Made by a program: the position numbers and the translations under genes | NCBI RefSeq assembly: GCF_964204865.1 | Contig: NC_135260.1 | Location: forward strand, 6,944,001 to 7,008,000 | Reading direction: 5' to 3' | Origin: Styela clava | Lineage: Eukaryota | Length of the DNA stretch: 64,000 nt | The notes under the pieces: model-generated | Database searches by the model: none | The model's input: the letters and a program-made list of their open reading frames with translations, nothing else | Told to the model about the DNA's origin: nothing | In this document: in pieces, positions 839 to 45,927 of the stretch | Layout: every line of letters begins with the position of its first letter | Position numbering within the stretch: the stretch's first letter is position 1

Positions 839-1704
839 TGTATTGAATATTAATTTAAATGTCATATTATATAAAACTAAAACACGACCGGACTCTTTCT
901 AGCTTACTTACCAAAGAACGGAAAATTGATTGTTAATCATCAAACACTTCTGTGGATTACATGTGATAGAATCTGCGTATTAACAAGAATAAAAACAAGA
1001 GAGCAATGTTCAAATATATCGGACACAAAAGTCATAACGAAGTTGTATGCTATATACAGTATATATCAAATTTTTTACGTTACCCGTAGTCTGACCATCT
1101 GATAAGTGACCACGTAACCTTGGCACGCGATTTTAAATTTTGATGATGTATTCACACAAAACTTCGAAGTGAAATACGACAACAAGAAACTTTAATCAAT
1201 AAAAATTTAGTTTAAAGCCATTATTCCAGTAGTTAAAGAGCGGGCCGCAATCGGAGAAAACCCATAAGTAATCAAAACATCACAAGTTTACTCACTTTAA
1301 ATATATTCAAGAATAAGAGTTTACCGCTATGATCAGTTTTTTAAGAAAGAATTATAAAGTCTTTTGTTATTTTTTAATGGTTTCTCGAGAAATACTGTGG
1401 TATTTTCAATACTTTTCTCGTGTTTGGTTTTGTAATGTCGCTTAAAATTACATTCATTCGTGACGGATATTATTTGAAAACACACCAGACACTGTGGTTT
1501 AACGTTGTTGTGGGTAAGGAAATACGTTTCCTTCCAATTTACCTTGGTCACCTATTTTTTATTACACTCATTATATGATGAATTGTTATGTTTGACTAAG
1601 TTTGGACTCCGGACCCAGGCGACTCTCCACATGAGGAGTTAGTTGATGCGAGCTTAAAGCACGAAATTTAGATAAAGGCGCGACTCATTTCATTGGATTG
1701 GTTC
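839..1704. repeat. Left arm of ~865-bp inverted repeat (partner 3777-4640); contains decarboxylase exon 8 and part of intron 7
   Basis: Reverse complement aligns along its whole length to 3777-4640 with scattered substitutions (e.g. ORFs 1333-1551 - and 3930-4154 + are near-identical). Confidence 0.95.
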
Positions 1705-1906
1705 TGTCTGCACAAGACAATTCATTCTCCTTCTACTTATCACAGAACGTCATTTTCATATTGACACCGTCTTGACGTTTATAGATACAATATTAAAACT
1801 CCGTGATCAAAAATAACTAAAACATGTTCTTTCAATAAATATAAATATCTGCCAAAGGTTCAGTGCACGCTAAAATTGTTCTGCGGGCCGCGGTTTGACC
1901 ACCCTG
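1227..1906 (-). mobile_element. Internally deleted hAT (SPIN/Buster, GTF2IRD2-like) relic in intron 7 retaining a BED zinc-finger fragment
   Basis: hAT-type end CAGGGTGGTCAAACCGCGGCCCGC at 1906. Peptide WKETYF...KPQCLVC...NFKRHYKTKH fits the BED finger of this transposase group. Left boundary approximate. Homologous copies at ~3780-4255 and ~21700-22280. Confidence 0.7.
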
Positions 1907-2339
1907 ATTTAATTTTATGAGACATATCAGGGGAACAAAGACTGCTGATTGATTTAGGTTTGTAAGCTTACTAAATAAACTAACCACAAATAAAATAATC
2001 TGCAAAGTAGAAGTGAATGAAGTAATTTGTTTTTGATTTGGCCTTGATACATTTGCGACGAAATATTGGAGTTTAGTCAAATGGAACATTTAAGCAAAAG
2101 ATAATTTCATACCTCCAATCCTTTCATATGATGACAAAATTCCGGGCATATGAAGCTGCATCCGCCATAGGCGGCATCGACATGCAACTAGGTTATATCT
2201 TCTGCTTGGCCTGAAATTATATGAAAATGCTTTATTTTTGAAATTAGCAATATCAACCCTTCCAATGATTTAAAAAATAAAATTAAACCTTTTTTATTTT
2301 TAAATATTTTGGCCATTAATATGAAAATTTATTATAGTG

Positions 2340-2654
2340 CAGGGGTGGGCAACTCCAGGCACGTGTGACACGCGAGTGAGGCCACTGAAACAAGATCATT
2401 CTCCTTCACAAGAGTTTCAAGACTCTGAATTATCCGACAAAACTATGTGTCTGTTTTTCATTATTGTTTGTTTAAAATCCGTTATATATATATTCAAACT
2501 CGTTTTGTCCTTTCATGACATATGCCTACAAAGAAATATATTATGACATAACAACTGAGTAAACTATCGACAATTTTGGTCGGCACACGGAAGAATTTTG
2601 TCATTAAATTTAGCCGATTTTGGCACGCGAGCCGAAAAAGGTTGCCCACCCCTA
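2340..2654. mobile_element. hAT-type MITE in intron 6
   Basis: TIRs CAGGGGTGGGCAAC / GTTGCCCACCCCTA; degenerate 8-bp TSD TTATAGTG / TGATAGTA. A truncated homologous copy lies at ~22690-22974. Confidence 0.8.
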
Positions 2655-4499
2655 TGATAGTATAATTTTAAGTTTGAAAAAAATGTTCCTATACTTTTTA
2701 TATATTATAAAAAGATTTTAAATATTGTAAACCAAAATGAGACAAAGTAAGTAAATTTCTTACAAACTTGTCCGATTTCGTCAAGATTGTCGAATGAAAC
2801 ACATGACGTTGTTTCCAGGGTAGCACACACCTCAAAAATATTTGTTTATTTGTTTTATAATTTGACACAATGAAACCGATTTCATCACTAACATGAATGA
2901 TTCTGAACAGATCAGTCAACTTCAACAATTTTTCAAAAAAATATAAATAAAAATTGAATATCAGAAAAACAGTTTTGTTTTGTTTATAAAAACCAATTCT
3001 TTTTTGCACATTTGTTTCGACCATTTCACCCAAAATAAAAGACCTAAAATTAGCATAAGAATGTTTATTTGTTATTAGAAGATCTCTCACATAAAACGGC
3101 ATTCCTATCTTCTGTTATTGCACGTTGCAAGTTATCACCTCGCATGGACACGTTCTTATTCACTGGTATTTTATGGAGTTGTGTGAATCCCAATAAACCT
3201 ATATAAATTTGAAGGAATTTTGATTCACGATGTTGGATATTTTAATGTTTTACTTTTCAATAAATATTTAAATTTTAAATTTCTACTCACAGGCTCTCTC
3301 GACTGAAGAATGACTGTGTATTGAAGTGTATGCAACTAACTTTGATGCAAGTTCGTATTGAGAAACATCAGGATATTTTAAGCTAAGTGTCTTCAGTGCA
3401 TTACTTTTTGCAGACAACAGCTTCATCAATGTGCCTTCACTGCAAGATCCTGTAAAATTTGATATCAAATCAGCACACAATAGTTAAATATTCATACTGT
3501 ATGACACATACATAGCGGATGATACTGAAGAATTTTTCCTTAAAATTTAAAGTTTGACGATATTTTATTTAGATATTTATTATTATAATTATATATTTAA
3601 ACAAGGATTGAGTACACGAAAATCATATTTTCATCTTACCTAAAATCACTCCGCACCCAGGACCAACACCTTCATGAAGAAAATCTTTAGGAAGATTCAT
3701 AGCTTTAGCCAGCCAATCCAACATCAAGGTTTCCAATTCTGCACAAGTAGGACTTGTTGCCTACAAGTAAAAAACTGAACCAATCCAATGAAATGAGTCG
3801 CGCCTTTATCTAAATTTCGTGCTTTAAGCTCGCGTCAACTAACTCCTCATGTGGAGAGTCGCCTGGGTCCGGAGTCCAAACTTAGTCAATCATAACAATT
3901 CATCATATAATGAGTGTAATAAAAAATAGGTGACCAAGGTAAATTGGAAGGAAACGTATTTCCCTACCCACAACAACGTTAAACCACAGTGTCTGGTGTG
4001 TTTACAAATAATATCCGTCACGAATGAATGTAATTTTAAGCGACATTACAAAACCAAACACGAGAAAAGTATTGAAAATACCACAGTATTTCTCGGGAAA
4101 CCATTAAAAAATAACAAAAGACTTTATAATTCTTTCTTAAAAAACTTATCATAGCGGTAAACTTTTATTCTTGAATATATTTAAAGTGAGTAAACTTGTG
4201 ATGTTTTGATTACTTATGGGTTTTCTCCGATTGCGGCCCGCTCTTTGACTACTGGAATAATGGCTTTAAATTAAATTTTTATTGATTAAAGTTTCTTGTT
4301 GTCGTATTTCACTTCAAAGTTTTGTGTGAATACGTCATCAAAATATGAAAATGCGTGCCAAGGTTCCGTGATCACTTATCAGATGGTCAGATTACCGGTA
4401 ACGTAAAAAATTTGATATATACTGTATATAGTATACAACTTCGTTATGACTTTCGTGTCCGATATATTTGAACATCGCTCTCTTGTTTTTTCTTTTTAG

Positions 4500-7082
4500 T
4501 ACGCGGATTCTATCACATGTAATCCACAGAAGTGCTTGATAATTAACAATCAATGTTCCGTTCTTTGGTAAGTAAGCTAGAAAGAGTCCGGTCGTGTTTT
4601 TGTTTTATATAATATGACATTTAAATTAATATTCAATACATTCGCATAGATCAACGGTTCCCAAAGTGGGCGACATTGCCATAACTTGGGGGCGCTGATG
4701 GCGATTTAGTCAATTGGGGGGCGCTGGCTGTCAAACTAGGAATTTGGGGGGAGCTGACATCAATACGGGAGCTCACAAGAAATATGATATTACATGCCTT
4801 TTACTCCTATGTTTTGGTTCAAACTAGTTTGCTTGTGATATCCGTGTTGAAAATTCTCGCTCAATGTAGAATAGATAATATGACTTTTTTTTAATCCGTA
4901 TTGTTTCACAATAATACATAGCACATAGGGCAAGCTTTACCATGTACTGCACGTATCGATGTACTCTTTTAAATAACTGCTGGTCACTTCTATCAATTCC
5001 TCAAGTAACGTCCAGATTTTTCCCGGCACAACCACGTAATATTTTGTATTCATGATTGGACTCTTTCATTTCCATGTCCCGATAGAAGAAGGTGCGCTTC
5101 AACAGAAAACTGAGTGAGTGATTGAATATTTTGCGAAACTTCTGAGTATAATCATACGCAAACAGAAGTTCAAGCGCGAATAAAATGAAACATTTTTTTG
5201 AAGATAGTAAAGAAATTTTTGGTTACCGTTTTTCAGATAACCCTGAATTTTCAGAAGCGAAAATGCACCACTTTCATTGGCTTTATACTTTCAAACTCAT
5301 GTTCAATGTTTCAAACTTTTGGGAACAGAAACAAATTGAAATATCTTCACGAGTGAGATAGGGTGAAAAGTTTTTTATTGCTTTTGTCAGCTCATTTTTG
5401 GTAGAGCGAGTATTTAGTGCAATGACAATGTCAGACGAGTAGACTCAAGACTGTTTTTGACTGAAATAAAGCCAGATATTATCAAGCTAAAGGGCATTGT
5501 ACTAGGCTCAACCGTCACACATTTGACTAATGATAAATGAGGAATAAAGTTGCTTTGACTTTTTTGTCAGGGGGGCGTTTGCTGGTTAAAAAGTCGTCCA
5601 AACGGGGAACTGACAAAAAATCGTTTGGGAAACACTGGCATGGATGATATAGTGGGAAAGTTTAATATGTCGCATCAAATTTATATCAAACGTCAAACTA
5701 GCTTATCGAAGTTTCAGCAAGTTTCTAATTTAAAAAACCATGTTATGTAGTATGTACAGTACAGTACAGTATATACTTTTGTAGTGGTTACTAGACAATT
5801 CGTTTCGATGGACAAAAATTAATAATTTTTGCCTACCCGCTGCTCTTTGAAAATAAAATTTTCGGTTTGAAAAACTCTGAATGCTGCAAAATTCTCAAAA
5901 TTAAAACTCATTATTCGAGTTATGATAATAAAGATATTTTCACTCGGGTGAAAGACAGGAAAATGTACTCAGAACCTTTTAAAGTTGACCCGAGTTACGT
6001 TCGACATGACGATGAGGACGTCGTAATTGATTACCGGGTATGGTGCTATGATATAATAAATTTTATGACAAAACAACATTTTGGATATTTTGAATCTATT
6101 GACTTTGTGGGTGTTCTAAATTAATTTTCATTTGATTACAATCTAAGTTACATCTGCCAAATGTTGGCTGCATTTTACTTAAACAGAAACAAATAATAAG
6201 ACATCAAAAAATGTGAAAGCGTTAGTTGAGTTTTATATTTAACAAAAGGTAAGGAAACATATTTACTCTGTTACGTTACGAAATTACGATTCCGTGTTTT
6301 CTGAATTATATATTCATTAACTAAAAAACTGTTTGCATTTAGCATTTAGGTGTTGGATTCGGTCGGCGATTTCGTTCGCTCAAACCGTGGTTTGTTTTTC
6401 GTCTAATTGGAATTGAAGGTCTTCGCTACCGAGTGAGAAAAGACGTAGAAATGGCAAAACTGTTCTGATCTTTCGTCAAGACCGACGATCGGTTTGAAGT
6501 TGTTTTTCCGGTGAAACTGGGAGTCTTTCGTTTTCGATTGATAATTTACAAAGACGATACAAAGGTGGAAGTTTACCGATTTACTCCACTTGAAAATACC
6601 TTAAATCTAGGAAGCGATATAAACAATCGTCGGCAACAAGAAGCATACCTTTTAATATGAAATCTCGCGTTTATTCAATCTTTGAAAAGGAACTTATGTT
6701 GTGATGTTTCAGCGTTTGATGTTGATTAAGCTGTGGCTTTTTGAATTATTACTGTCCGACCATATTGAAATGAATCTCTTATGCTTTTAGTTTTTGTTGT
6801 GTCATGTCCGGAGTTTCAAAAATGATTAAAGTGGTTTTCTTTCTGTTTTAGTAACAAATATCATTGTCGACCATATTTTACTCATTACAGAAAAGCAACA
6901 TGATCAACAGACAACTTCTCAAACATATCAATGATTCAAAAGATATCTTCTTGATTTCATCAGAAGTTGAAGGAATTTATTTTCTTCGAGTAGCTACCGG
7001 TGTTACTGCATGCAACGAAAATGCCATTAGAAATTGCTGGAACGCCATTCTGAAACACGCAACTTCAGTCCTGTCAACATAG
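4500..7082 (+). pseudogene. Aromatic-L-amino-acid decarboxylase-like pseudogene copy B, exons 8-11
   Basis: Exons 4500-4567 (YADSITCNPQKC), 5947-6037 (VKDRK..DPSYVRH..IDYR; acceptor AG>CG), 6343-6564 (HLGVGFGRRFRSLK; TGA at 6466-6468), 6891-7082 (KSNMIN...VLST*). Confidence 0.92.
4652..5637 (+). mobile_element. Non-autonomous hAT (Buster/Charlie-like) element in intron 8
   Basis: TIRs CAACGGTTCCCAAA / TTTGGGAAACACTG; TSD GCATAGAT / GCATGGAT. Residual peptide EKFFIAFVSSFLVERVFSAMT (~5366-5427) resembles the hAT dimerisation domain. Confidence 0.85.
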
Positions 7083-7771
7083 TTAGATATTTATATAAAA
7101 GAAACGACTGCATTTATTAAATATGTATTCAAGAATAGTTGTAATTTGCATAAGCAGCAGGATGCGAAGAAAATTTTTCAAAATTTTTTTATCCTATTTT
7201 TGAATGCAGATATAACAACAATATTTTGTGCTGCCATTTTATGTGCTGTTCAAACTATCAATGTAAGAATTCTTTTTCCCTTCTGCTGACAGAAATCAGA
7301 TTTTAAAAGTTTTGCTTTATCAGAATTCCTCATGTCAATGGAAATAAAAGAAATATTATAAAACATTTGTAAGTATCGGTAAACGAACATATAAGAGTCT
7401 GAAATGGCAAATAAACTGAAACAGCAAATGAAAAATATCCACGACCTCATTAAGCACCTAGTACTTGTCGTCGCATGTGGGCTCGAATGAGTAAGATATT
7501 TAGGTAATTGAGAGAGGTAATCGAGACAGTTTGTCCAATATTGTTAGAGGTAAACTCAAAATAATTGTTCTTTTATCGTTGTTCAAAACTCAAAAAAATT
7601 AAATGGAGCAAATAAAAATTCAATTTGCGATTTTCAGCTTTTTCAAAGTTAAAAAAACGTAATATACAAACCGATATGAGACAAACTTGAGTCGCATATT
7701 CCTGCTGGTCCTGTATCTAATTCAATTATTGGAGTCTTTCGACTGAAAATTGAAAGGACAAATTGCGCGTA

Positions 7772-7900
7772 TTCCCGAAGTATGTGAACCAAGATAGTAA
7801 CCGACACCCGGGACACCCGAAAGTAATATGCGTACCAGGTTAAGGTTAGGCCAGAATTTTATTCCAATTTTCCTTATTTTAGTTCTATTACGAGTTACGA
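7772..7900. mobile_element. Truncated half copy of the Merlin-like MITE family
   Basis: TCCCGAAGTATGTGAACCAAGAT...GGTTAAGGTTAGGCC...TTTTAGTTCTATT matches the left half of 17012-17247. Confidence 0.8.
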
Positions 7901-9339
7901 CTTTTTTAAAAGTGTCGCTGCTCGACAAACAGTATTGGTTTTCCGCGTCTCCGTCGTGAAATGCAGTTTTTAATGAACTATTTATTTGTAATTTATATGT
8001 CTGATGCGTATTTTCAGCGTGGTGAAAAAATAAACTACTGATTACTGACGGTAGACAACATTTTAGTATATTATTGTAGTAATGCTATCTCTATTCCCGT
8101 TTAATAATTTCAATATACCATCTGTTGTTTAGTTTTGCTTTCGAATAAGGAATATCGTAAAAGATCAGAAACAGTACACAAAATGTGCTAAGCAAAAAAT
8201 ATATTGCTTCACAATAGCAATACAAATGACAATTACATTGCTTAACAATGGTAATATTTAATAGAAATAATGTATTTCTATATAATGTTGTAAATAATGT
8301 ATATGTAATTTGCCATTAAATAACAAATCAAATCAAGATCTTATTAATTGCTAAACATTGCAACAAATACATCAAACATATTGGCATGATATGAAATAAT
8401 ATGTAAACTAATGTAAGAGGGTCAATTTCTAACGGAATGGAGTGATAAGTGATTCAAACGACTCTATCCGTGTGTATTCAATTAAGTACGGCAATTACGA
8501 AGATTTAATTGCTCCAAATCTTACAAATACTGTCACTGAAGACATAATTAACGTCTCTTCATTGTATAGAAATTGTAAGATTTTGATCGATCCTGTATTC
8601 AATCCTGTGTGTCGTCGTACAATACAACAATTTACAAGTCTTAAGAACGGGTTCTCTTATGTATCGAACTTGCTAACAGCAGGTTCCAACGTATGAATAT
8701 CACAAGTCAAGAACGGGTTCGCTGACTATCACGAATTTTATTTTCAAGAAAAGGCTAATTATCAAAGTAATGTTTAAATAAACTCTTGAGGATTTTACTA
8801 CCAGAAATATGTAACATTCCATAAACACGACATCATGTTTTCAGTTAAATTATTGAAAAATCCAAGACTGGGTATTTGCTAAAGTTTTAGCTCGAACTTT
8901 TAATTATTCGTATGTACGAGTTTAAAGTTTTGTCATCTTTGTCGCGATCGTGTCAAATTTGAATTACTGGACAAAAAATAAATTGGTCAAAGGTTGGGTT
9001 ACCAATTTGTGACCGAATTTCTTAGCAGAAGAAAATGAAATCTGATTCTGATATACTAATGCCTCTGATTTGAACAAGTTTTATTTTTTTTAAGATGTTT
9101 GCGCGATGGCCTATTGGCTAAAGCTTTAAGCTATGTATAGGACATAGAAAAGATTTTGCTATTTCACTGATATATAACAAACAGTTCGAAAAGTACTGAG
9201 TTCGGTCCAGGAACCTCAACAAGTTTTTTCCCCCAAGCAAACTGATATTCCCTTCTCGAAGTATCGAGAATATATAATTCTTGTTCGCTTCTTTCTTTTT
9301 AATCAAATGCACTGTTGCAGTTTAGTTAAAACGAGCGAA

Positions 9340-12300
9340 ACAAAGTAACATAAAAAAAATAAATTATTACAAATATGAATCATCTATATGAACAAATGTT
9401 TCTACTTATGATTAGGCTTGGGCATTGGGTAATCATTAAAAAAGAGCAAAATTAATGAGAGTCATTAGGTTCAGTTAAATAAAGCGAATTATTTCATTTT
9501 TCCGAATTATTGATAATTTGAAGCTGCTCCTGCAAAGTTTTGGCGCGAGTCTTGCTAATGAGAACAATAGTTGCGGAAATGGAAATTCGCGGAACGTTTC
9601 AAGCAGTAGGCTACCCTACACTGATTTTTTTTTAAATATTCACAATTTGTGAGCTGTTTTTGCAAACACTCGGACCATTTTAATAATATAAAAAACGACT
9701 AGCTAGCAGAAACAATTGTTTTGGAGGTAAAAACTCGCGGAACGTTTCAACCAGTACTTTACACCGATTTTATTTCCTGAAACATTCATAAATTGTGAGC
9801 TTTTATGGAAAGACTCGACTTATTTTAGAAAATTGAAAACGACTAGCTATCGAGAACGAATGTTTTGGAGGTAAAAATTCACAGAACGTTTTTTGCAAAT
9901 ATTTCTGAATGCTTTTTAGTCGACTCTACTCCACATTGTAACTAGCAAAACGCTATCAACTACTATTAATAGTTACCTATTAGGTATAGTATAACTATTA
10001 TATAGTATGTACACAGTCATCTTTACTTGAATGGTCTTGACAGACAGCCCACTGATTATCTGGGGACATATTGTTGATATATTCAGGCCCGAGTCATTGC
10101 CTATAGCTAGGACTTTGTGCTATATTAAACATACTGAAAATAGGAATGTAACTAGTCTTTCGTGTTATATGAAATTGAAAGAGCAAGTTTCAGACTTCAT
10201 TAGTGATTGAATTCTAATTTAATTTTCACTATATTATTTCGAAATAGTTCTCATCTCATACCTACAAACATTTATAGATGGGTGGCGATAGCTAAAAAAA
10301 CAAGAATTTTTTTTCAAACGGGCTGCTATTGGGGTCTGAATTGCCCTTCGGTACCCCATTAATTTGATGCCCTGGACTAGTTCCTATTTTGCTTAATAGT
10401 TCAATTTATCTCTGGCTACAACATCCTTGCATTATTATACGTCTACAAATCTGTCAAACTAATACAGCAAGACTAGATAGAATCCCCTGCTGTAGCTCAA
10501 ACTAATACCCACAGTGAAATCAAATATTAAAAGTAATTAAACTGAAGCTTTATAACAGCATTGAGGAAATAAATGAATATAAATAGAAAACCTTGATATG
10601 AGCAAATGTTTCTATCTATTATTACTAAGCATGGGCATTTGGTAATCAATGAAAAAGGGCAAAATTAACGAGGGTCATTAGGTTGAGTTAAATAAAGAGA
10701 ATCTCCTATTTTATTTTCCGAAATATTCATAATGTGAAGCTGCTCTTGCAAAATTTTGGAGTGCGTCTAACTAACAAGAACAATGGTTGCGGAAATAGAA
10801 ATTCGTGGAACGTTTCAAGCAGTATTTAACAGTTAATTTTATTTCCTAAAAAAAAACATAATTTGAGGGCATGTTTTCGCAATGCCTCTCTATTGTAAAA
10901 TAAAACGGCTAACTAGCGAGAACAATCGTTTTATACAATAAATTCGCAGAACATTTTAAGCAGTTCTTTACACCTATTTTATTTTCTAAAACATTCATAA
11001 TTTGTGAGCTGTTTTTGCAAAGACTTGGGTCATTTTAGAAAATGGGAAACAACTAGCTAGCGAGAGCAATTATTTGGACGCAGAATTTTTTCGCAAATAT
11101 TTCTTAATGCTTGATAGTCGGCTCTACTCTACATTGTAACTAATGCACAGCAAAACGCTATTGTTCACGCAGTATGTATGTGTATACATTATTATATGGT
11201 ATATACACAGTCATATTTACTTGAATTGTCTTGATAGGCTGCCCACTGATTAGCTGAGGACATATTATTGATATAACCAAGCCCGGATCATTGTCTCTAG
11301 GACTTTGGTGTCCTATATATAAAACATAGTAATATTAGGAATGTAACTATTGTTCCGTTGAAAAAGCAAGTTTAAGACTTCATTACTGATTGGAGGCTAA
11401 TTTAGTTTACATGAATACAAATCTGTCAAATTAATAGATCAAGTCTAGATCTCGCGTTGTAGCTCAAACTAATACTTTCAGTGAAATCGAATATTAACGG
11501 TATTGAAACTACGGTGAAATACTATTTAGGCGTTTGGCGACTGACGGGATTCAACAGTTTTGAAAAAATGAACAATTATTAATAAAAAACCCCAATTAAT
11601 ATTATTAAGCTTGGGCATTGATCAATCATTGGAAAGGGGGGAAATTGATGTGGGTCATTAGGTTTAAATAAAGAGAATCTCCTATTTAATTTTCCCAAAT
11701 ATTCATAATGTGAAGCTGCTCTTGCAAAATTTTGGCTCGAATCTAGCTAACGAGAACAACATTTGAGGAAATAGACATTCGCGGAACGTTTCAAACAGTA
11801 CTTACACATAATTCCATTTCCTAACTAATCATAATTTGGGGCATGTTTTCGGAATGCCTTGACTAATTGAAAAATAAAAACGACTAGCTAGCGAGAATAA
11901 TCATTTTGTTAATAGAAATTCGCAGAAAATTTTAAGCAGTTCTTCACACTTATTTTATTTTCCAAAAGATTCATAAATTGTGAGCTGTTTTTAAAAAAAC
12001 GGATTATTTTAGAAATTGGAAACGACTAGCTAGAGAGAGCAGTTGTTTTGGAGGTCGAAATTCGCGCAACGTTTCAAGCAGTACTTAACACAAAACTTGA
12101 TTTCCTAAAATAGTCATAATTTAGGGGCGTGTTTTCGCAATGCCTCGACTAATTTTGGAAAATAAAAACGGTTAGCTAGCGAAAACAATCATTTTGTTAA
12201 TAGAAATTCGCAGAAAATTTTTGCAATTTTTTACACTTAATTCATTTTCCAAAACATTCATAAGTTGGCTGCTTTTTTTGCAAAATCTCGGTTTATTTTA

Positions 12301-12545
12301 AAAAATGGGAAACGACTAGCTTGCGAGAATAATAATATTGAATTAGAAATACGCAGAACTTTTTTCGCAAATATTTATGAATGCTTGAAAGTCGGCTTTC
12401 ATCTTCATTGCAACTAAAGCGCAGCAAAACGATATTAATTACACAGTATAGCCATCTTCACTTGAATGGTCATGATAGACTGTCCACTGATCAGCTGGGC
12501 ACTTATTGTTGAAAATTGTTGATATAACCAAGCCCGGGTCATTTC
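9340..12545. repeat. Hierarchical tandem array: three ~1.0-1.2 kb units, each with 3, 3 or 5 copies of a ~145-bp monomer
   Basis: Unit marker GCWTGGGCATT at ~9417, ~10629, ~11609. Monomer marker CTAGCTAGCGAGAAC-like at 9551, 9697, 9840; 10767, 10906, 11050; 11741, 11881, 12023, 12168, 12313. Confidence 0.9.
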
Positions 12546-14354
12546 TTTCTTTTTTCTTTCAGTTTGTTGCGTAGCTTCGTTATGTAGCTTAAATTGTAAA
12601 GTGTAAATTTGCCGCCACTTGTGAATAAATGGCGACGTTATTCTTGCAAAAAGCGTAACATTGTAAGGCTAATTGATGTAGTAATTTGAACTTCGTGCTT
12701 ATAAAATGATGTATTTTGTCAAGCGTGAGTGCCTCCGTCTTACTAGCCCGTCGGTTTGTTCTGCGAACCTGATGCTCGACCGGTCGTTGTTACCAATGTG
12801 GATGCAACATGTCATGTCCGTCAGTCTCAAAGGTCAAAGTTTATAGAATTCAAATCAGACTAATGCAATAAAATTCATACGCGATCATGACAGCGGAAAA
12901 ATACATGATCCGCAGGCAACATTGCCTCATTTTGCCGTTTTTATCCAATTCAAGCGATATTTCTTGAATAAAATACGACATACATTATTTATTTCTATTT
13001 CTATAGCAAGCATAAAAATGATAAGTACTTAACAAATATCGCACTGAGTAGACTTGACGTCACATAGACCCGATAAATGTCTCACTCCAGTGTTGCACAC
13101 TTATAATATATCAGATATATTAAACAAACACCACATTTGTCATTAGAACCAAAGCATATTCAAAAAGGGCGCTGAAAATATGATAATTTCATCGCAAAGC
13201 AGGTTCCTTTGCCGCAGTTTTTTGACTTTTGTACCTATATAGTTGATCATTGCTTTCTCTTGTTTATAATAGCATGGCAAGTAGAATAAAGTTAAATGTC
13301 AAATCTACTAATCTAGTTCAAATCATCAAAATATTATTCTTTCCTATTCATTACTACTTTGGATTAAATGAAAAATAATTATTTTTACAACTTATAAGCA
13401 ACGAAAAATTGATTATAATTATATGCTTATATTTTTGATGCCATGGATCTTGTAAATATTGTTTGAAAATTAATTAAATACAATTACAACGATTTGTAGT
13501 TGTGAGCAGTACAAAAGCAGTATTTTAGGCAGTACAGAAAAAATTAAGCAAATCGAAGTCGATACTGTCGATGTTTAATAAATTGAGTACGATAATCGAA
13601 GTACTTCTTCCTTGAGAACTTGACTTCCATATGCGTTGTGTACACACATATTTTCTGACAACAGTACTTGCTACCCTTGTTTGTCGATAAACATTAAAGT
13701 GAAAGAACACAAACTAATTGCTATCTCTGCAAAGATATAGAGCCATTATGTCGTCCTCGTGTTTATAAAAGTGTCAACCGTATCTATTTATCAAAGAAAA
13801 TATAGCTTAACTGTGTTTTGAGGATGACACATTAAACTATGAAGCAGTTTGACTTTAAAATGACAGCGTAGCGACGTTGTGCGATTTTTGTCGAAGAATT
13901 TAAATCAGGTGTTTGGAATTTTTATGGTTTTAGGTCATTAAGTTATTTAATAAATATTTAACCTCATGCCTATAAAGTTTTTTGCTAGCCATTAATTAGA
14001 AAATAATTTTCAATCTAGATTATCCCATATTGGTTTGCATCTTATCCAGAGTGTATGGATACATTTTTAAAAGTGTTTGACGAATATTAATTAAACGATG
14101 CAACTGCTGACATTTCATAATATTTTCCAAGTGTGGTTTATTCGTACCAACGTCTAGTACGATAAAATAATACAGGCCATTTTTTAAAGTGTGAATGATA
14201 AGCATACGTTGATATTTTTTGTGATGTTTGGTGTGATTTTCACTATTTGTATTTTGGACGAGTTTTATAATATGCTAATGTATTAATATTTAAAAATAGC
14301 ATTTGGGCATAGGCTAACTTGACGTCAGTGATCATAAACAAACAAGAAGAAAAT

Positions 14355-15749
14355 ATGAATTTTGAGATCGAGCAGGGTTCATTTAAAGAAATCAAAAGTA
14401 GATGGGAGCAAAAAGGGGAGAATAATTCATACGGCAATAATTCGCCGTCTGCAACTAAAATCGAAACGAGAGAGCAAAAACTCAAACGTTGGGCAGAATC
14501 GGAGAGAAGATATTGGGAAATGCAAAAGGCTAATAAAGAACAAAAATATCAAGATAAAATAACTATGGCGGAACGAAGGAAAACGATAAAAGAAGAGGTT
14601 GCCCGAAAGGCTGATGATGCTTCTGATAAAAAAGAAAATTTACGTGAAAACGAAAGGCAACAGGAGAAACTAACACGATGGGCAGCATCGGAGCAGAGAT
14701 ATTGGGAGGAACGAAAAGCTGCTCAAGCGCAGCGATATCGGGAAAGAAGACATCTAGAAGAACTTCGGAGAGGTGAAGAAAATGAAACAGATGATATTAC
14801 AGAAATACAAAAAGCTATAGAATATGACGTCGTACCGGAGACCAATGAGGTCAATGATCAGACGGAAAATAAAATACTAGATAAAAACGAAAATCAACAG
14901 GACAAAATTAAACGATGGGCAGCGTCGGAGCAGAGATATTGGGAGGAACGAAGAGCTGCTCAAGAACAGCGATATCAAGAAAAAAGATATATAGCAGAAC
15001 TCCAAAGAGCCGAAGAAGAGCAGCAGTATCAAGCTAGATATCAAGAAGAGCTTCGAAAAGCCGAAGAAGAGCAGCGAGTTCGAGACCAAATACGTCAAGA
15101 AGAGCTTCGAAAAGCTGAAGAAGAACAGCGAGTTCGAGAACAAAGACGTCAAGAAGAGCTTCAAAAGGCTGAAGAAGAGAAGCGCTATCAGGAAGCAATA
15201 CGTTTAGGAAAGCTTCGAAAAGCAGAAGATGACAAGCGCTATCAGGAGGAAATACGTCTGAACGAACTTCGAAGAGCTGAACAGGAGAAGCGATATCTGG
15301 AAAATAGACGTCGAGAACAACTTCGAAAATTTGCAGAAACGCAGCGAAATCAGAAAAGAAAGAATCCTGGAAAATGTATCCAGAAACACAAAGTTCTAAC
15401 AAAGAACAATAATGATATTGACTTTGACAACGTAATCAATGCTTTCCGTGGCAATGAGGAAAATTCCGCATCACAGAATGGATTTTCAGAAATTAATACG
15501 CATGGTGAAATTGCCGCTGGCGTCACTGGTGCCACGGAAACGTATCATGAAATTGCTGCTGGCGTCACTGGTGCCTCGCAAACGTATCATGAAATTGCTA
15601 CTGGCGTCACTGGTGCCACGCAAACGTATCATGAAATTGCTGCTGGCGTCACTGATGCCACGCAAACGTATCATGAAATTGCTGCTGGCGTCACTGGTTC
15701 CACGGAAACATATAGTGCAATGGAAGCTGTGGGATGCGTGGTATCTTAA
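14355..15749 (+). CDS. Intronless orphan protein, 464 aa: E/R/K/Q-rich helical repeats, 14-aa C-terminal repeats, terminal CaaX (CVVS)
   Basis: 1.4-kb uninterrupted ORF in AT-rich DNA. First ATG at 14355 (the track start 14319 is TTG). AATAAA at 15856 and 15928. No family recognised. Confidence 0.8.
   Translation: MNFEIEQGSFKEIKSRWEQKGENNSYGNNSPSATKIETREQKLKRWAESERRYWEMQKANKEQKYQDKITMAERRKTIKEEVARKADDASDKKENLRENERQQEKLTRWAASEQRYWEERKAAQAQRYRERRHLEELRRGEENETDDITEIQKAIEYDVVPETNEVNDQTENKILDKNENQQDKIKRWAASEQRYWEERRAAQEQRYQEKRYIAELQRAEEEQQYQARYQEELRKAEEEQRVRDQIRQEELRKAEEEQRVREQRRQEELQKAEEEKRYQEAIRLGKLRKAEDDKRYQEEIRLNELRRAEQEKRYLENRRREQLRKFAETQRNQKRKNPGKCIQKHKVLTKNNNDIDFDNVINAFRGNEENSASQNGFSEINTHGEIAAGVTGATETYHEIAAGVTGASQTYHEIATGVTGATQTYHEIAAGVTDATQTYHEIAAGVTGSTETYSAMEAVGCVVS
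15507..15713 (+). repeat. Coding minisatellite, five 42-nt units (EIAAGVTGATQTYH)
   Basis: Units start at 15507, 15549, 15591, 15633, 15675. Confidence 0.95.
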
Positions 15750-17011
15750 AGTAATCATAAACAGAGCTGAGCTTAAAGCACGAACATTTGTAGATTAGAC
15801 TTTACCTAGGAACACATGTTCCCTTTAATTCGATTAGTCCAGAGATTTGTATACAATAAAGTGATGTTTATTATATCATCAGTGGCAGTGGCAGTTTTCA
15901 GTTCAGTTCCTACGTGTTACAATTAACAATAAACTGTATTTGTAAGATTTGAAGCAATTACATCTTCGTAATTCCCGTACTTAATTGAATACACACGGAT
16001 AGAGTCGTTTGAATCACTTATCCCTCCGTTTTGTTAGAAATTGACCATTCTACATTAGTTTACAAATTATTTCACATCATGCCAATCTTTTTGATGTATT
16101 TGTTGCAATGTTTAGCATTTAACAAGATCTTGATTTGATTTTGTTATCCAATGGCAATACATTATTTCTATGAAATATTAAATAAGCAATGTAATTGTCA
16201 TTTGTATTGTTATTGTGAAGCAATATAAATTTTTTGCTTAGCACATTTTGTGTACTGTTTCTAATCTTTTACGATATTCCATATTCGAAAGCAAAACTAA
16301 ACAACAGTTTGATATTGAAATTTTTAAACGGGAATAGAGATAGCATTACTACAATATTATACCAAAATGTTGTCTACCGTCGGTAATCAGTAGTTTATTT
16401 TTTCACCACGCTGAAAATACGTTTCAGACATATAAATTACAATTAGTTTATTAAAAACCGCATTTCACGATGGAGACGCGGAAAATCAATACTGTTTATC
16501 GAGCAGCGACACTTTTAAAAAATTCTAACAGGAAATAATAGAAAAAGGTCGAGATGTATATGTTAAATAAAATAAGCACTAAATACTTCAACGCGACTTG
16601 GTATAACTAGATGAGGCAATCACCGACAATCTAAGTAGTAACCCTGGAGATAACAGTTCTGAGGCAGGTTCACAATCATACCATTGTGAGGTAACTAGGT
16701 CTCTTAGAGAATAATAAAATAATATTGCACGTTAGAGTGGGTGGCTCAGGCCAAGATGTGCAAATATTGTGGTAAACGAAAGCTGTGACAGCATTCTTCG
16801 TATACATGATTCGTGGGGAGCGTAACTGACGTATAAACAGCGTACATAAAAGGAAAAACGGCGCAGTTTGGCTTTTTCCAATTGTCAGTCAGAAGACTCC
16901 AAGAATCGAACTAGATGCAGGATCGGCCGTGGTTATCACTTCCAGGAATATATGACTCATGTTTGTCTCATTTCGGTTTGTATATTGCAAAATTTTTTTA
17001 CAAAACAAATT

Positions 17012-17247
17012 GGTGCTCCCGAAGTATGTGAACCAAGATGGCGGGCACCGAAACGTAGCATGTGTACCAGGTTAGAGTTAGGCTATAATTTTATTCCAAT
17101 TTTTCTTATTTTAGTTCTATTACAAATTCGGTGACTAGCCAAGTGACTCCCGTAGTATCTGTACCTGAAATTATGGCCTAACCCTAACCTGGTACACATA
17201 CTACGTTCTGGTGTCCGCCATCTTGGTTCACATACTTCGGGAGCACC
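17012..17247. mobile_element. Merlin-like MITE with ~75-bp TIRs
   Basis: GGTGCTCCCGAAGTATGTGAACCAAGATGGCGG...CCGCCATCTTGGTTCACATACTTCGGGAGCACC; absent at the equivalent site of the left arm. Confidence 0.9.
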
Positions 17248-17297
17248 AAAGAAAAATTCTTTGAGAAAGCCGCAAATCGTGAATTGAATATTTTATT

Positions 17298-18115
17298 TGT
17301 CGGCAGTCTGTGCGGTCTTAAGTTTTAGTTTAGTTCGGGTTCCTTCTATTGTATATCGTCATCGTGATGATTACCGCTGTTTCGTCGTCGTCATCATTAC
17401 TGTGTTGCTTTTCTTGCATCCGACGTGTCGCCTTTGTTGTCTTTCACGTGTCATCGTTTTACGTATTGAGTTTACACCATCATCCCTCTAAGCTCGGTGA
17501 GATTTTAGGATTGCATTTCTGGTGGTAGCAGTTCAGGATTTCATTTCTTGTTATGGCAGTTTAAGATAGCGTTGAGGTTTGAATTCATTTATTAGTCTCC
17601 ATTTATACTGTATTTCGAATTGTTCGATATAACAATATGATATTTGCATGTCTACAGCTCGTATTGTATTGCATTTATAGTTACTGTTTTACCTTGGTTG
17701 TATATCTGTCGTTTTGGGACTATTCTGTTATATGGAGTTGTTTTGTGTGAGTATTAGTTTTGGTGCTCCCGAAGTATGCGAACCAAGATGGCGAACATCG
17801 GAACGTAACATGGGTAACAGGTTAGGGTTAGGCGATAATTTCTTTCCAATTTCCCTTATTTTAGTCCTATTATCAGTTCGAAGACTAGCCAAGAGCCTCC
17901 CGTAGTATTTATACCTAAAATTATGGCCTAACCCTAACCTATACACATGTTACATTCCGATGTCCGCCATCTTGGTTCGCATACTTCGGGAGCCCCTTAG
18001 TTTTATATTCTGTATCATTTGTCTTTGATTTATTTGATGCTATTCATTTCACTTGTATTTTAGTCAACCGTTTTGAATATTCTTAATAAAATAAGTCTGG
18101 AAAAGCGACTTAACA
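17298..18115 (+). mobile_element. Candidate solo LTR (~575 bp once the nested MITE is removed)
   Basis: Insertion absent from the left arm; TGT...ACA termini; AATAAA at 18085, ~25 bp before the end; no clean TSD. Confidence 0.45.
17762..17996. mobile_element. Merlin-like MITE nested in the candidate LTR
   Basis: Same TIRs as 17012; perfect 8-bp TSD TTAGTTTT (17754-17761 / 17997-18004). GG termini plus an 8-bp TSD fit Merlin. Confidence 0.92.
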
Positions 18116-18911
18116 TTTCTGGGTCCCAAAAGTCCCAATCTTTTTGAGTTTTGAACAACGATAAAAGTACAATTATTTTGTAGGAGTCTTTCCTTTTATA
18201 ATTACCTCGTGTTTTAGCAATCTGGTCTCCAGTATAAAAGTCTTAGTATATGAAACCTTTAGAATCGAACCATTCCCAGTACCGATATTTTTAAAAGAAG
18301 CTTAACGCAGTAATTGATTGGCTTATTATATTTCAACTCGTTATTGTCGTGCCTGAAAGGTTAAATGGCTGATTGCTGCTGAATGTGGGTCGGTTTTAGT
18401 CTTCTTTTTATCTAGTATAATATGTCACTTGATAAATCGATATTTGAAACTAGACGCATTATCAATATTGGACAAACTGTCCCGATTACCTCTTTCAATT
18501 AGCTTAAACTCATTTGCGCCCACATGCGTCGACAAGTACTGGGTGCTCAATGAAGTCGTGGATATTTTTTATTTGCCATTTCAGTTGACTGATCTTATGT
18601 GTTCGTTTACCGATGCTTACATATGTTTTATAATATTGCGTTTATTTCCGTTTACATGAAAAATTTTGGTAAAGCAAAATTTTTGAAATCTGAGTTCTCT
18701 GAGTTCTAAAAATCTCAGCAAAAGGAATAAGAATTCTCACATTGATAGTTTGAATAGCACAAAAATCTAGCAATACAAAATAATGGAGGTATATCTGTAT
18801 TCAAGAAAAAAAATTGAGAATTTTCTTTGCAGTCTGCTACATATGCGAATTTCTACAATTCTTGAATATATATTTGATAAATGCAGTCGTTTCTTTCATA
18901 TAAATGTCGAA

Positions 18912-21900
18912 CTATGTTGACAAGACTGAAGTGGCATGTTTAAGAATGGCATTCCAGCAATTTCTGATGGCATTTTCGTTACACGCAGTAACACCGGTAG
19001 CTACTCGAAGAAAATAAATTCCTTCAACTTCTGGAGAAATCAAGAAGATATCTTTTGAATCATTGATATGTTTGAGCAGTTGTCTGTTGATCATGTTACT
19101 TTTCTGAAATGAATAAAATAGGGTCAACAAGGGATTCATTTCAATATGGTGAGAAAGTTATAAATCAAATAGCCATAGCTTAATCAACATTGAACGCTCA
19201 AACATCACAACATAAATTCCTGTTCAAAGATTAAATAAACCGAGATTTCATCTTAAAATGTACGCTTCTTGTTGTCGACGATTGTTCACCCCCATTCCCA
19301 AATTTGAGGTATCTTCAAGTGAAGTAAATCAATAAACTCCCACCTTTGTATCGTATTTGTAAATTATCAATCGAAAACAAACGACTCCCAATTCAACCGG
19401 GAAAACAACTTCAAACCGATCGTCGGTCTTGACGAAAGATTCAAACAGTTTTGCCATTTTTACGTCTTCTCTCACTCGGTGGCAAAGACCTTCAATTCCA
19501 ATTAGACGAAAAACAAACCACGGTTTGAGCGAACGAAATCGCCGACCGAAACCAACACCCAAGTGCTAAATGCAAACAGTTTTTTAGTCAATGAACATAT
19601 AATACAGAAAACAGGAATTCGTATTGTAATTTCGTAACGTAACGAAGTAAATATGTTTCTTTACCTTTTGTTAAATATAAAACTCAACTAACGCTTTCAC
19701 ATTTTTTGGTGTCTTATTATTTGTTTCTGTTCAAGTAAAATGCAGCAAAATGCAGCCAACGTTTGGCAGATATAACTTAGATTGTAATCAAATGGAGATT
19801 AATTTAGAACACCCACAAAGTCAATAGATTCAAAATATCCCAAATGTCATATCCCAAATGTCATTTTGACATAAAATTTATTATATATCATAGTACCATA
19901 CCCGGTAATCAATTACGACGTCCTCATCGTCGTGTCGAACGTAACTCGGGCCAACTTTAAAAGGTTCTGAATACGTTTTCCTGTCTTTCACCCTAGTGAA
20001 AATACCTTTATTATTATAACTCAAATAATGAATTTTAGTTTTGAAACTTTTGCAGCATTCTCAAGAGTTTTTTTTTTCACAGCCGAGATTTTTAATTTCA
20101 AAGAGCAGCGGGTAGACTAGACCTCAGATAGACTTGGGAACAGAATATATTATAATATATTTATTGTTAACATTTCATTTTATCTTTATTTTCTGAGTTA
20201 TATTGAGTTTGTTAATATGCAATGAGTTCTCACAGGTGCTGAAAAAATTATTAATTTTTGTCCATCAAAACGAATTGTCTAGTAACCAATACACAAGTAT
20301 GTACTGTACATAACTTGCATGTTTTTTAAATTAGAAACTTGCTGAAACTTCGATAAGCTAGTTTGACGTTTGATATAAATTTGATGTGACATACTATACT
20401 TTCCCACTATATTATCTATGCCAGTATTTCCCAAACGTTTTTCTGTCAGCGCCCCCTTGGACGACTTTTTAACTAGCAAACGCCCCCCTAACAAAAAAGT
20501 CAATGCAACTTTATTCCTCATTTATCATTATTCAAATGTGTGAAGGTTGAGCCTAGTAAAATGCCCTTCAGCTTGATAATATCTGGCTTTATTTCAGTCA
20601 AAAACAGTCTGGAGTCTACTCGTCTGACATTGTCAAGGGATCACTCTTGATATTTAAAAGTGCGGTCACTGCACTAAATACTCGCTCTACCAAAAATGAG
20701 CTGACAAGAGCAATAAAAAAACTTTCAACCCTATCTCACTCGAGAAGATTTTTCAATTTGTTTGTTCCGAAAAGTTTGGAACACTGAACATGAGTTTGAA
20801 AGTATAAACCCAATGAAAGTGGTGCATTTTCGCTTCTGAAAATTCAGGGTTATCTAAGAAACGGTAACCAAAAATTTCTTTACTATCTTCAAAAAAAATG
20901 TTTCATTTTATTCGCGCTTAAACTTCTGTTTGCGTTTGATTATACTCGGAAGTTTCGCAAAATTTTTAACCACCCACTTAGTTTTCTGCTGAAGCGCACC
21001 TTGTGCTATCGGGACATGGAAATGAAAGAGTCCAGGAAGGAAGCGCATGCCCTATGTGATATGTATCATTGTGAAAAAATACGGATTAAAAAAAAGTCAT
21101 ATCATCTATTCTACGTTGAGCGAGAATTTCCAACACCGATATCACAAGCAAACTAGTTTGAACCAAAACATAGGAGTAAATGGCATGAAATATCATACTT
21201 CTTGTGAGTTCCCGTATTGATTTCAGCGCCCCCCAATCGCCCAGTTTGACAGCCAGCGCCCCAAAATTGCCCAAATCGCCATCAGCGCCCCCAAGTTATG
21301 GCAAACGCCCACAAGGGGGCGTTTTCGCCCACTTTAGGAACCGCTGATCTATGCGAATGTATTGAATATTAATTTAATTGTCATATTATATAAAACAAAA
21401 ACACGACCGGACTCTTTCTAGCTTACTTACCAAAGAACGGAAAATTGATTGTTAATCATCAAGCACTTCTGTGAATTACATGTGATAGAATCCGCGTACT
21501 AAAAAGAAAAAACAAGAGAGCGATGCTTAAATATATTGGATACGAAAGTCATAAAGAAGTTGTATACCATCTGATATGTGACCACGGAACCACGCACGCA
21601 ATTTTAAATTTTGATGATGTATTCACACAAAACTTCGAAGTGAAATACGACAACAAGAAGCTTCAACCAATAAAAATTTAATTTAAAGCCATTATTCCAG
21701 TAGTTTGGTTCTGTAATGTCGCATGAAATTACATTTTTTGGTGACAGATATTATTTGAAAACACACCAGACACTGTGGTTTAACGTTGTTGTGGGTAAGG
21801 AAATACGTTTTCTTTAATTTACCTCGGTCACTTGTTTTTTATTACACTCATTGTATGATGAATTGTTATGTTTGACTGAGTTGGGACTCCGGACCCAGCT

Positions 21901-24682: not shown

Positions 24683-25389
24683 TTTATTACTTTTACACTT
24701 CAAAGAGCCGCAGGTAACAGAAAATGTTTGAGATTAATAATTTTCAAATGTGGATGAAAGCCGCCTGACGAAAGATTGAATTTTCAGAAAAGATTTTTAT
24801 GTAACGAAAAATGGTTCCGAAATTTTTGCAAGCAGTAGCGAACGCAACCCAAATAAAAAACAATGCTTCAGCCATATAAGCTATTTCAACTACAATATTT
24901 TACACGAGGTTCGCAAAATTTCTTTATATCATGTAACATAGTAGTCACCATGTCGTACATGTCGTCGTGAAAGTTCTGCTTAATTTAACTTCTAGCATAG
25001 GAAACAAACGTCTTAAAACGTTTAACGTTCACAAAACATCATTAGTGCACTTACTCAGGCGGAAATATATAGAATATTAAGAAATTGGGAGACGTGTCGT
25101 TGACAGATTAATTAATGATAGTGCGTCCTGTCTCAAATATCGGAAACAGTTTTCTTATATGTCTGAATAAATTAGGATGAATCTTTGATCGCATAACTTA
25201 ATCGTTTTTCATAATATATGTTAACGCAATTTGGTTTGATTATCATGTTACATTGCAAAAATTGGGGAACCATAATTCACACGTTTTATAATTCTCTCAA
25301 GTTTCCACAGAAGCTCAAAAATCATTTTCATTTGATAACAGAACATTGCAAAAGCTACAGGGCTTTGTTCAACTATATATTCTCATATA

Positions 25390-25680
25390 CAGCGTGCATA
25401 TCGATTCATTTTAAACTTATATTACTTCTGGCACTGTAAAACAACATTCTGCTGAAAAAAGCTGTTGGGACAACAAATATCTTGACAATGTTTTGTAAAG
25501 TCATGTTACTATTAATCCAGCATTCATATAATTGGTATTCAGAAGACCTTGGATCGTGCATAGTTTTTTGACATCTAAGAAATCTTAATGATGTTTTCAT
25601 TATGTAAAAAAAAAGTTTAAAAATTTAATTTGAATAATTTAAAACAGTTTATGGCAAAATTGGCCTGTTGCACACCACTG
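25390..25680 (-). mobile_element. Decayed hAT fragment
   Basis: End CAGTGGTGTGCAAC at 25680 (-). Frameshifted peptide IVKIFVVPTA/FSAECCFT..KMNR resembles the hAT dimerisation motif. Other end not found. Confidence 0.35.
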
Positions 25681-26734
25681 TTATAAGCGGACTCGCTAAT
25701 GGCAAATTCACGCCAATTCATTTAGAAGAAAAAGAGACTTATCTCTGATATAAGTCACTGAGAACCACTGGAGACTGTTGCATAATTCTCAGATTAGGCT
25801 AAATAATTAAATAGTTCACTACTGTCCTTTTTAATAAAATGATTATAGCGTAGTTTTTTTTCATTATGAGACCTCTCAAGTACCGAGATTCTAGTCTATG
25901 AAACCGTGTGAGTAAGTGTGGTGGATTTCTGAAAAGATTGTTTTGTTCGATTAAATCAATGATGGAAAATTAAAAACGCTTTGCATTTAGCACTTGGGTG
26001 TTGGTTTCGGGCGGCGATTTCGTTCACCGAAAGCGTAGTTTGCTTCTCGTTTTATTTGAGTCGAAGGTCTTTGCCACAGAGTCAGAGAAGACGTAAAATG
26101 ACAAAACTATCTGAATCTCTAGTCAAAACCGAAGTTGTTTTTCCGGTGGAATTGGGAGTCGTTTGTTTCTAATTGATAAAATATATACAAAGACGATACT
26201 GAGGTGGGAGTTTACTGAATAATTAAGCGGGAGCACATATCAAGCATTAGAACTGCCAATGAAAAACTTTAATTAAGATACTTTAAATCTGAGAAGCCAA
26301 TTTAAAAGATTCGTCGGCAACAGGATTGATAAAATGAAAGCTCGCTTTATCTTATTTAAGCGTATTTATGTTGTAATGTTTGAGCGTTCAATTTAGATTA
26401 AGCTCTGGCTATTTGAATTATTACATTTCCATCATATTTAAATTAATCCTGTCCAAAGTTTTAAAAGCAATTAAATCTGAGTTAGTTTTGTTTACTGTTT
26501 AGTAACGCATTTCATTTTGCGGGCATATTTTACTCATTACATAGAAGCAACACAATCAACAAACAACTTCTCAAACATATCAATGATTCAAAAGATATAT
26601 TTTTGATTTTGTTAGAAGTTGAAGGAATTTATTTTCTCGAATAGCTAACTACCAGTATTACTGCGTGTAACGAAAATGCCTTTCTAAATTGATGGAACGA
26701 TATTCTGCCACTTTGGTCTTAGTATACTCCAGTG

Positions 26735-38089: not shown

Positions 38090-38290
38090 ATAATTAGAAG
38101 GCTTACAGAGATTTCTTCCATATTTAATAACTAAAAATTTGAATTTGATTGGTGCGGTATTTGCGCTAAAAGCGGGGTTTTCTCAACAACAACAACAACC
38201 ACAACAGCAACAATAATAATGACAACAGCAACAACAACAACAACACGAATTCAGAAAAATAATCCCTATAGGTCTTACGTGCCCGATAAC
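38090..38290 (+). mobile_element. Diverged copy of the (CAA)n-containing HINE-like family
   Basis: Core similarity (ACTAAAAATTTGAA...TTGGTGCGGTATT...AAAAGCG), (CAA)n at 38184-38244, tail CTATAGGTC..CGTGCCCGAT. Weaker copies near 36000, 42500 and 44050. Confidence 0.5.
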
Positions 38291-45713: not shown

Positions 45714-45927
45714 GGCGCTCCAGAAGTGTGTGTACCAATATGGAAGTGACCAATTTTGTTCGCCTACTTTACATCAAGTTGTGTAAAGGAATTGAAACTT
45801 ATGAACAGGGGGTATATTCACTTAGCTAACAGAGACAGTCCCCGGACTCGTAATATAACTAAAATAAGGAAACTCGTAATAAAATTATGGCCTAACCAAA
45901 ACATGGTACACACACTACGGGAGTACC
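45714..45927. mobile_element. Old copy of the Merlin-like MITE family
   Basis: Ends GGCGCTCCAGAAGTGTGTGTACCA / TGGTACACACACTACGGGAGTACC; TSD-like CATTCTAA / CATTCATA. Confidence 0.75.

Follow-up and report, generated by a model that had tools for sequence, protein, structure and literature searches.

Rearrangements in which an inversion is accompanied by duplicated sequence at its breakpoints fall into several described classes. In a template-switch product of type 1-3-4-2, inverted repeats enclose a spacer that is itself inverted (Loytynoja and Goldman 2017, PMC5453318). For Drosophila, staggered breaks have been proposed for 17 of 29 inversions, those with inverted duplications, a single breakpoint being duplicated in 12 of the 17 and no reported duplication exceeding about 1.9 kb (Ranz et al. 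2007, PMC1885836). Human fold-back junctions are reported with spacers of 766-70,466 bp (median 3,428) and with 2-8 bp of microhomology in 13 of 21 cases (Hermetz et al. 2014, PMC3907307), and catalogues of human structural variants list duplication-flanked inversions as routine subclasses (dupINV, INVdup and delINVdup; PMC5338099). Among common human inversions, 24 of the 45 studied are reported to lie between repeats of 654 bp to 24.2 kb with more than 90% identity, and all but three of the inversions mediated by highly identical repeats were judged recurrent (PMC6748972). Large polymorphic inversions have also been reported in the tunicate Styela plicata (PMC12627437). Here we describe a rearrangement of this kind in its congener Styela clava, located in a pseudogene of an aromatic L-amino-acid decarboxylase-like paralogue within a 64,000-nucleotide stretch of contig NC_135260.1 (positions 6,944,001 to 7,008,000, hereafter the window, numbered from its first letter). 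A search of the open-access PMC and bioRxiv literature returned nothing relevant to this locus.

The 11-exon structure of the gene was established by tblastn with P0002, an intact 503-aa S. clava paralogue, and the exon pieces match Pfam PF00282. The window carries a collinear copy A on the minus strand (24682-18912) and a rearranged copy B. In copy B the same search assigned exons 3-7 to the minus strand (2113-3760) and exons 9-11 to the plus strand (5947-7082), and it matched exon 8 in each arm of an inverted repeat. The principal features are as follows.

839 to 1704, minus strand: left arm (b), 866 bp, comprising part of intron 7, exon 8 and the start of intron 8
1701 to 1704, plus strand: GTTC, the reverse complement of the junction microhomology, on the intron 7 side
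1705 to 3776, minus strand: spacer c, single-copy, 2,072 bp; its orientation is opposite to that of exons 8-11 to its right
3777 to 3780, plus strand: novel intron 2/intron 7 junction with 4-bp GAAC
3777 to 4640, plus strand: right arm (inverted b), 864 bp
18912 to 24682, minus strand: copy A, in which exons 1-11 keep the ancestral order; taken as a proxy for the original layout, and also a pseudogene

The original prediction, made from the sequence before the present analysis, held that exons 3-7 are flanked by inverted repeats of about 865 bp, and two alignments bear this out. In a self-BLAST of the window, 839-1707 matches 4640-3774 in inverted orientation over 869 columns (96.3%). The global alignment of 839-1704 with 3777-4640, which supplies the arm identity proposed there as a check, contains 26 substitutions (17 transitions and 9 transversions) and 4 gap columns in 867 (96.5%), with a longest identical run of 91 bp. 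The middle fragment, 839-3780, corresponds to copy A 21358-24077 as one inverted, in-order run of five blocks split by indels, and from 3805 rightward copy B is collinear with copy A. The exon 8 segment, single in copy A, occurs twice in inverted orientation in copy B and is present at both breakpoints. The predicted GAAC microhomology was likewise confirmed: it is common to intron 2 (copy A 24074-24077) and to intron 7 (as GTTC), and the chance of finding at least 4 bp at a join is about 0.024 at the local base composition. Ancestral order was judged from paralogue A and the exon order of the intact protein P0002.

We interpret this layout as the outcome of one complex repair event, which inverted part of a collinear decarboxylase paralogue and duplicated, in inverted orientation, the sequence at one breakpoint, and assign this reading a probability of roughly 0.55. 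Starting from a plus-strand collinear paralogue (upstream sequence, exons 3-7, exon 8, exons 9-11), synthesis would have departed from its template in intron 2 and restarted on the other strand at 4640, a little ahead of the transposon in intron 8. It would then have run in reverse for 2.94 kb, across exon 8 and exons 7-3, and used the 4-bp GAAC match in intron 7 to rejoin the forward strand. Staggered breaks, followed by fill-in and end-joining, would yield an identical product by another route, and the two mechanisms are not separable from one sequence.

The locus resembles type 1-3-4-2 products in its inverted repeat flanking an inverted spacer and in the contiguous reverse-complement middle fragment. 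It differs in scale, since the published survey, as described, covers short mutation clusters and the reverse-copied fragment here is kilobase-sized, and in the absence from the window of the sequence expected left of switch point 1 (1-838 searched). Identity at the switch points is 4 bp at 3777-3780 and 0 bp at 838/839 when compared with three candidate parents. With the Drosophila staggered-break inversions it shares the inverted duplication of ancestrally unique sequence at one breakpoint, a duplication below 1.9 kb, and subsequent decay; the reported staggered-break inversions and inversions flanked by copy-number variants, however, are chromosome-scale or clinical, whereas the S. clava inversion spans 2 kb, lies within one gene, and is polarised by a paralogue in place of an outgroup species.

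Several observations weigh against a single-event origin. Intron 2 and exons 1-2 would be expected to the left of 839, but blastn with A 24078-25900 and tblastn with A exons 1 and 2 located no second copy of them, either in 1-838 or in the rest of the window, and therefore an added deletion or an insertion of more than 838 bp is needed, by which exons 1-2 would have been lost or displaced. The DNA left of 839 is repeat-rich and unrelated to intron 2, a palindrome adjoins the arm, and no microhomology exists at the outer junction, which make the left junction the weak point of every model. The arms have not diverged uniformly, which calls for an added later exchange, and, if the age of their inner part dates the event, copy B died before the inversion.

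The surroundings of the junctions contain several mobile-element remnants.

689 to 838, no strand assigned: imperfect palindrome, 150 bp, with 45-bp arms matching at 43 of 45 positions; adjoins the left arm; like a miniature inverted-repeat transposable element (MITE) or a short fold-back
1227 to 1906, minus strand: decayed hAT-like element in intron 7, with a Spin-doc zinc-finger fragment (PF18658, E 5.8e-8)
4652 to 5637, plus strand: non-autonomous hAT-like element in intron 8, shared with copy A; starts 11 bp past the outer end of the arm

The intron 7 element is presumably a hAT, a name based on its Pfam match and on its end motifs, and the novel junction lies about 200 bp inside it. The intron 8 element has an 8-bp target duplication, perfect in copy A and matching at 7 of 8 positions in copy B. 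Given that the outer end of the arm is so close to one such element, that the inner junction is inside another, and that the palindrome abuts the left junction, aberrant cutting by a transposase at hAT-like or MITE ends in introns 7-8 might have produced both the inversion and the duplication. We consider this improbable: no breakpoint coincides exactly with the terminal repeat of a definable element, no new target-site duplication is seen, the introns are full of such elements, so that proximity is weak evidence, and a palindrome cut by a junction necessarily ends there. No further copies of the palindrome were found in the window.

Other repeats occur in the same region. A G-run cluster at 4668-4751, subterminal in the intron 8 element and about 30 bp from the outer breakpoint of the arm, is a possible fork-stalling site. 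Spacer c contains a short element with inverted ends in intron 6 (2339-2652), which we take to be hAT-MITE-like from its end motif. A dispersed repeat family ending in AAC microsatellites (94-357, 565-695, 990-1026, 38120-38245, 44058-44160 and 60053-60189) has pieces both to the left of the arm and within it.

The original prediction attributed the structure to a fold-back or to microhomology-mediated break-induced replication. Its template-switching component is compatible with the type 1-3-4-2 layout, while a plain fold-back fits less well, because the sequence beyond the spacer should then all be duplicated, and yet only 866 bp is. In an origin of the latter type, a minus-strand copy broken in intron 2 would have folded its 3′ end 2 kb back onto GAAC and copied exon 8 onward, after which the left exons 9-11 would have been deleted; or else, in a version with two head-to-head paralogues, synthesis would have moved, some 500 bp further on, to the second and older of them, located on the right. 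The kilobase-sized single-copy spacer (2,072 bp) and the 4-bp inverted microhomology do match the reported human fold-back junctions (PMC3907307), and the locus has experienced inverted duplication in the past (A versus B, and a third fragment at 25972-26707). Nevertheless, 1-838 shows no trace of a copy of anything from beyond 4640, and the left copy ends at 839, with no exons 9-11 there, so the duplication does not extend outward on both sides; there is also no long palindrome and no sign of terminal deletion or of a dicentric intermediate. At least two events would be required, and such an origin appears unlikely.

The order of the duplications can be approached by comparing each arm with copy A. 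Both arms are without about 110 bp of copy A (~21898-22010), and both keep about 190 bp absent from A at ~21703. These shared indels had been offered as proof that the arms were duplicated after the A/B split; the indels are indeed present in both arms, but they cannot be polarised and may be changes in copy A alone. Substitutions, in contrast, overall support duplication after the split, with 27 changes private to A, 9 to the left arm and 11 to the right arm among 529 clean gap-free three-way sites.

The arms have diverged unevenly: the inner 539 bp contain 9 events (1.7%) and the outer 327 bp contain 19 (5.8%), with a changepoint near 4315 (permutation p 0.028). In the three-way comparison, changes private to A, left and right number 16, 1 and 3 of 224 sites in the inner part, against 11, 8 and 8 of 305 for the outer one (p 0.009 by Fisher's test and 0.019 by max-chi permutation), so that in the outer part alone the three sequences are nearly equidistant. 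The gradient is suggestive only, because the three-way permutation p rises to 0.097 without CpG sites, and to 0.33 when exon 8 is removed as well. A split at the element boundary, chosen after seeing the data, yields 8/479 differences in the inner part versus 20/385 in the outer (Fisher p 0.006); the inner part roughly coincides with the decayed hAT-like element, which occupies 1227-1906 in the left copy and reaches 4254 in the right one. A mutation-rate cause was considered and rejected: A-private changes run in the opposite direction (16/224 inner, 11/305 outer) and CpG counts are similar (15 versus 18), although CpG removal does weaken the signal. We also rejected a long identical tract as a sign of recent conversion, since a run of 91 bp has a probability of 0.74 under random placement (median 105).

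The gradient suggests later recombination, and three readings fit it. First, an allelic crossover near 4250-4315 may have swapped the outer right arm for that of another haplotype; the outer divergence expected from arm age plus heterozygosity would be about 3.4%, near the lower end of the observed interval. Second, conversion or toggling between the arms may have homogenised the inner part, although an allelic crossover explains the gradient equally well. Third, the arms may have originated from two older paralogues, as in the paralogue version of the fold-back, which predicts a young inner and an old outer arm, as observed; the weakness of the three-way gradient after removal of CpG sites and exon 8 counts against it.

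The second reading is related to the possibility that a flip has already occurred. The inverted exon 8 segment would first have entered intron 2 without harm (type 1-4-3-2), so that exons 3-11 stayed collinear, and a later crossover between the arms would have inverted exons 3-7, with toggling and allelic exchange homogenising the inner arms most. An identical GAAC junction is expected in this case, the size and identity of the arms are within the range of recurrent inversions that form through non-allelic homologous recombination (NAHR), the inner arms are three times more alike than the outer at the post hoc boundary, and the exon 8 acceptor is intact in the right copy but dead in the left. 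We nonetheless regard a prior flip as quite unlikely. It adds one more event to the history; of the two exon 8 copies, only the right has derived amino-acid changes (two), contrary to what continued use of the right copy would predict; switching of private alleles between arms is not significant (runs test, 9 runs in 21 events, p 0.20); the longest identical run does not exceed that of random placement; and the gradient can be accounted for, with no flip at all, by a single allelic crossover with a standard haplotype near 4250-4315.

Finally, two haplotypes or a chimeric read might have been joined in inverted orientation during assembly. The inner-arm divergence of 1.7% equals the k-mer heterozygosity of S. 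clava, reported as 1.72% (PMC7540406), a point in favour of such an error. However, the join has a 4-bp overlap in a window without any N gap, divergence reaches 3.2% over the whole arm and 5.2-5.8% in its outer part, and the differences are transition-biased (17 of 26, with 6 of the 25 checked being CpG-type), unlike read errors; a chimera of the same molecule would yield identical arms. A typical long read also exceeds the 3.8-kb structure. An artefact is thus very improbable. The exons of copy B are the following.

912 to 979, minus strand: exon 8, left copy; acceptor AA instead of AG
2113 to 2210, minus strand: exon 7; in-frame TAG (TGG in copy A)
2764 to 2830, minus strand: exon 6
3091 to 3198, minus strand: exon 5; 11-bp deletion relative to copy A, causing a frameshift
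3291 to 3449, minus strand: exon 4
3640 to 3760, minus strand: exon 3; acceptor 16 bp from the right arm
4500 to 4567, plus strand: exon 8, right copy; the splice sites are intact and two amino-acid changes are derived
5947 to 6037, plus strand: exon 9; acceptor CG instead of AG
6343 to 6564, plus strand: exon 10; in-frame TGA
6891 to 7082, plus strand: exon 11, the final coding exon; homology with A extends further, in pieces, as far as 8533 / 15933

Because of the exon 5 frameshift, the stops in exons 7 and 10, the dead exon 9 acceptor and the absence of its exons 1-2 from the window, copy B is, on its sequence, dead in either orientation of the spacer, and copy A is broken too. Over exons 3-11, A and B differ by 0.137 synonymous (dS) and 0.033 nonsynonymous (dN) substitutions per site, a ratio of 0.24 (32 synonymous and 27 nonsynonymous changes; Fisher p 1e-7), and therefore both copies were constrained for part of the time after their split. 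When the 28 amino-acid differences were polarised on P0002, 16 proved to be derived in B and 10 in A, with two left unassigned. The B-derived changes, 16-18 in 371 codons, correspond to 0.019-0.021 per nonsynonymous site (confidence interval, CI, 0.011-0.034), a range that overlaps the age of the arms as a whole, 0.016 per lineage (CI 0.011-0.023); the inner-arm age is 0.008 per lineage (CI 0.004-0.016). In view of this overlap, the rearrangement may have killed copy B or may have come soon after its death, an order which the data cannot establish; copy B would have been dead or dying around that time and decaying since.

The arms could still recombine, flipping the spacer at some low rate. 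We reverse-complemented 1705-3776 in silico, and 1701-8533 then became collinear with copy A, save for two short repeat matches, in agreement with the earlier claim that a crossover between the arms would make exons 3-11 collinear on the plus strand. The flipped sequence remains a pseudogene, two of its lesions lying within the spacer and two beyond it. Of the proposed "flippable cassette" the geometry stands, while the word cassette overstates the case: a flip restores the order of the exons but not the gene. In a programmed invertible gene switch of the phase-variation type, at least one orientation yields a functional product. Here neither orientation does, with lesions inside and outside the spacer and no exons 1-2 in the window, and the structure has no switch function.

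Flipping of the spacer by arm recombination is plausible by analogy with recurrent NAHR inversions as reported (Giner-Delgado et al. 2019, PMC6748972; Aguado et al. 2014, PMC3961182), which likewise involve repeats of at least 654 bp with more than 90% identity around a small segment; at 866/864 bp and 96.5%, the S. clava arms are within these limits of about 650 bp and 90%. In the human studies such loci usually toggle, whereas this one is known from one orientation; moreover, its arms are at the small end of the range, have no identical run longer than 91 bp, and enclose a fragment of a pseudogene. That both orientations of the spacer exist in S. clava is rather doubtful, and that it toggles recurrently, with the inner-to-outer gradient in arm identity as a record of toggling, is very unlikely.

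Copy A, the ancestral reference, has a history of its own. Its exon 4 is 100% identical to P0001 (XP_077974136.1), a 160-aa partial aromatic-L-amino-acid decarboxylase-like model from S. clava, and 87% identical to P0002. Its lesions are an exon 7 acceptor GG and four premature stops, all in exons 1-2 (126 codons; 24164-24682, minus strand) and none in exons 3-11 (371 codons; P ~0.004), which possibly reflects an N-terminally truncated form or conversion replacing the 3′ part of A. The RefSeq model P0001 bypasses exons 1-2 through an upstream first exon at 24960-24904, and copy B is likewise without exons 1-2 in the window. In word-based searches of protein databases, which give weak evidence of absence (one scored the 8,000 best candidates, of which the top 120 were inspected), no full-length A- or B-type protein was found, and P0001, the partial model of copy A, was the sole record of the window type (candidate sets were otherwise small, with 4 matches among 7 and 1 among 9). 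The working gene appears to be elsewhere in the genome, because P0005, the RefSeq member of the P0002 cluster, is listed on a contig that differs in length from that of P0001.

Copies B (839-8533) and A (15933-24077) form an older tail-to-tail inverted duplication with segments diverged by 7-15% and a 7.4-kb spacer, and a third, more diverged and older decarboxylase fragment with stops (exons 10-11; 25972-26707, plus strand) lies upstream of copy A and inverted relative to it. The motif preceding the presumed lysine that binds pyridoxal phosphate is NPQK in the P0002 group, NSQK in copy A and NPHK in P0003; the NPQK type may mark a diverged tunicate decarboxylase.

The arrangement may also have consequences at the RNA level. 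Flanking inverted repeats often promote back-splicing, according to published work (PMC7371899), and the exon 3 acceptor, 16 bp from one arm, and the exon 7 donor, 408 bp from the other, are both intact, so read-through on the minus strand would favour a predicted 553-nt circular RNA of exons 3-7. The same transcript would form a predicted 865-bp hairpin including exon 8, which could act on the intact paralogue. A search of 1-27000 for structured RNAs gave 0 Rfam matches at the gathering score.

Elsewhere in the window are a 478-codon stop-free frame rich in Glu, Arg and Gln, with 54-bp and 42-bp tandem repeats and no Pfam match (14313-15746, plus strand); degenerate tandem repeats with a ~142-144-bp period, nested in larger duplicated blocks (9357-12543); several copies of a ~240-bp element with inverted ends and a TTAGGG-like doublet (16999-17250, 17759-18007, 7758-7896 and 45837-45919); and exons of a C2H2 zinc-finger gene (PF00096; 47782-49664, minus strand), a putative KLF-family factor.

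The locus adds a genuine and well-preserved case, in a pseudogene, to a class of rearrangement already known. Its importance is modest: an inversion with duplication at a breakpoint can be read here cleanly and in full in an invertebrate chordate, and the paralogue next to it serves as an internal reference for the ancestral state. As no working gene is carried, a phenotype is improbable unless the hairpin or the circular RNA is made. An age of 0.008-0.016 substitutions per site per lineage is similar in order of magnitude to the heterozygosity reported for S. clava (1.72%, PMC7540406), and therefore the structure may still segregate. If it does, it would offer a cheap test, by polymerase chain reaction, of recurrent inversion by arms of less than 1 kb and 96% identity outside mammals. 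Should toggling prove true, S. clava would possess a self-made invertible segment, in which the event that created the inversion also made the repeats that allow it to flip.

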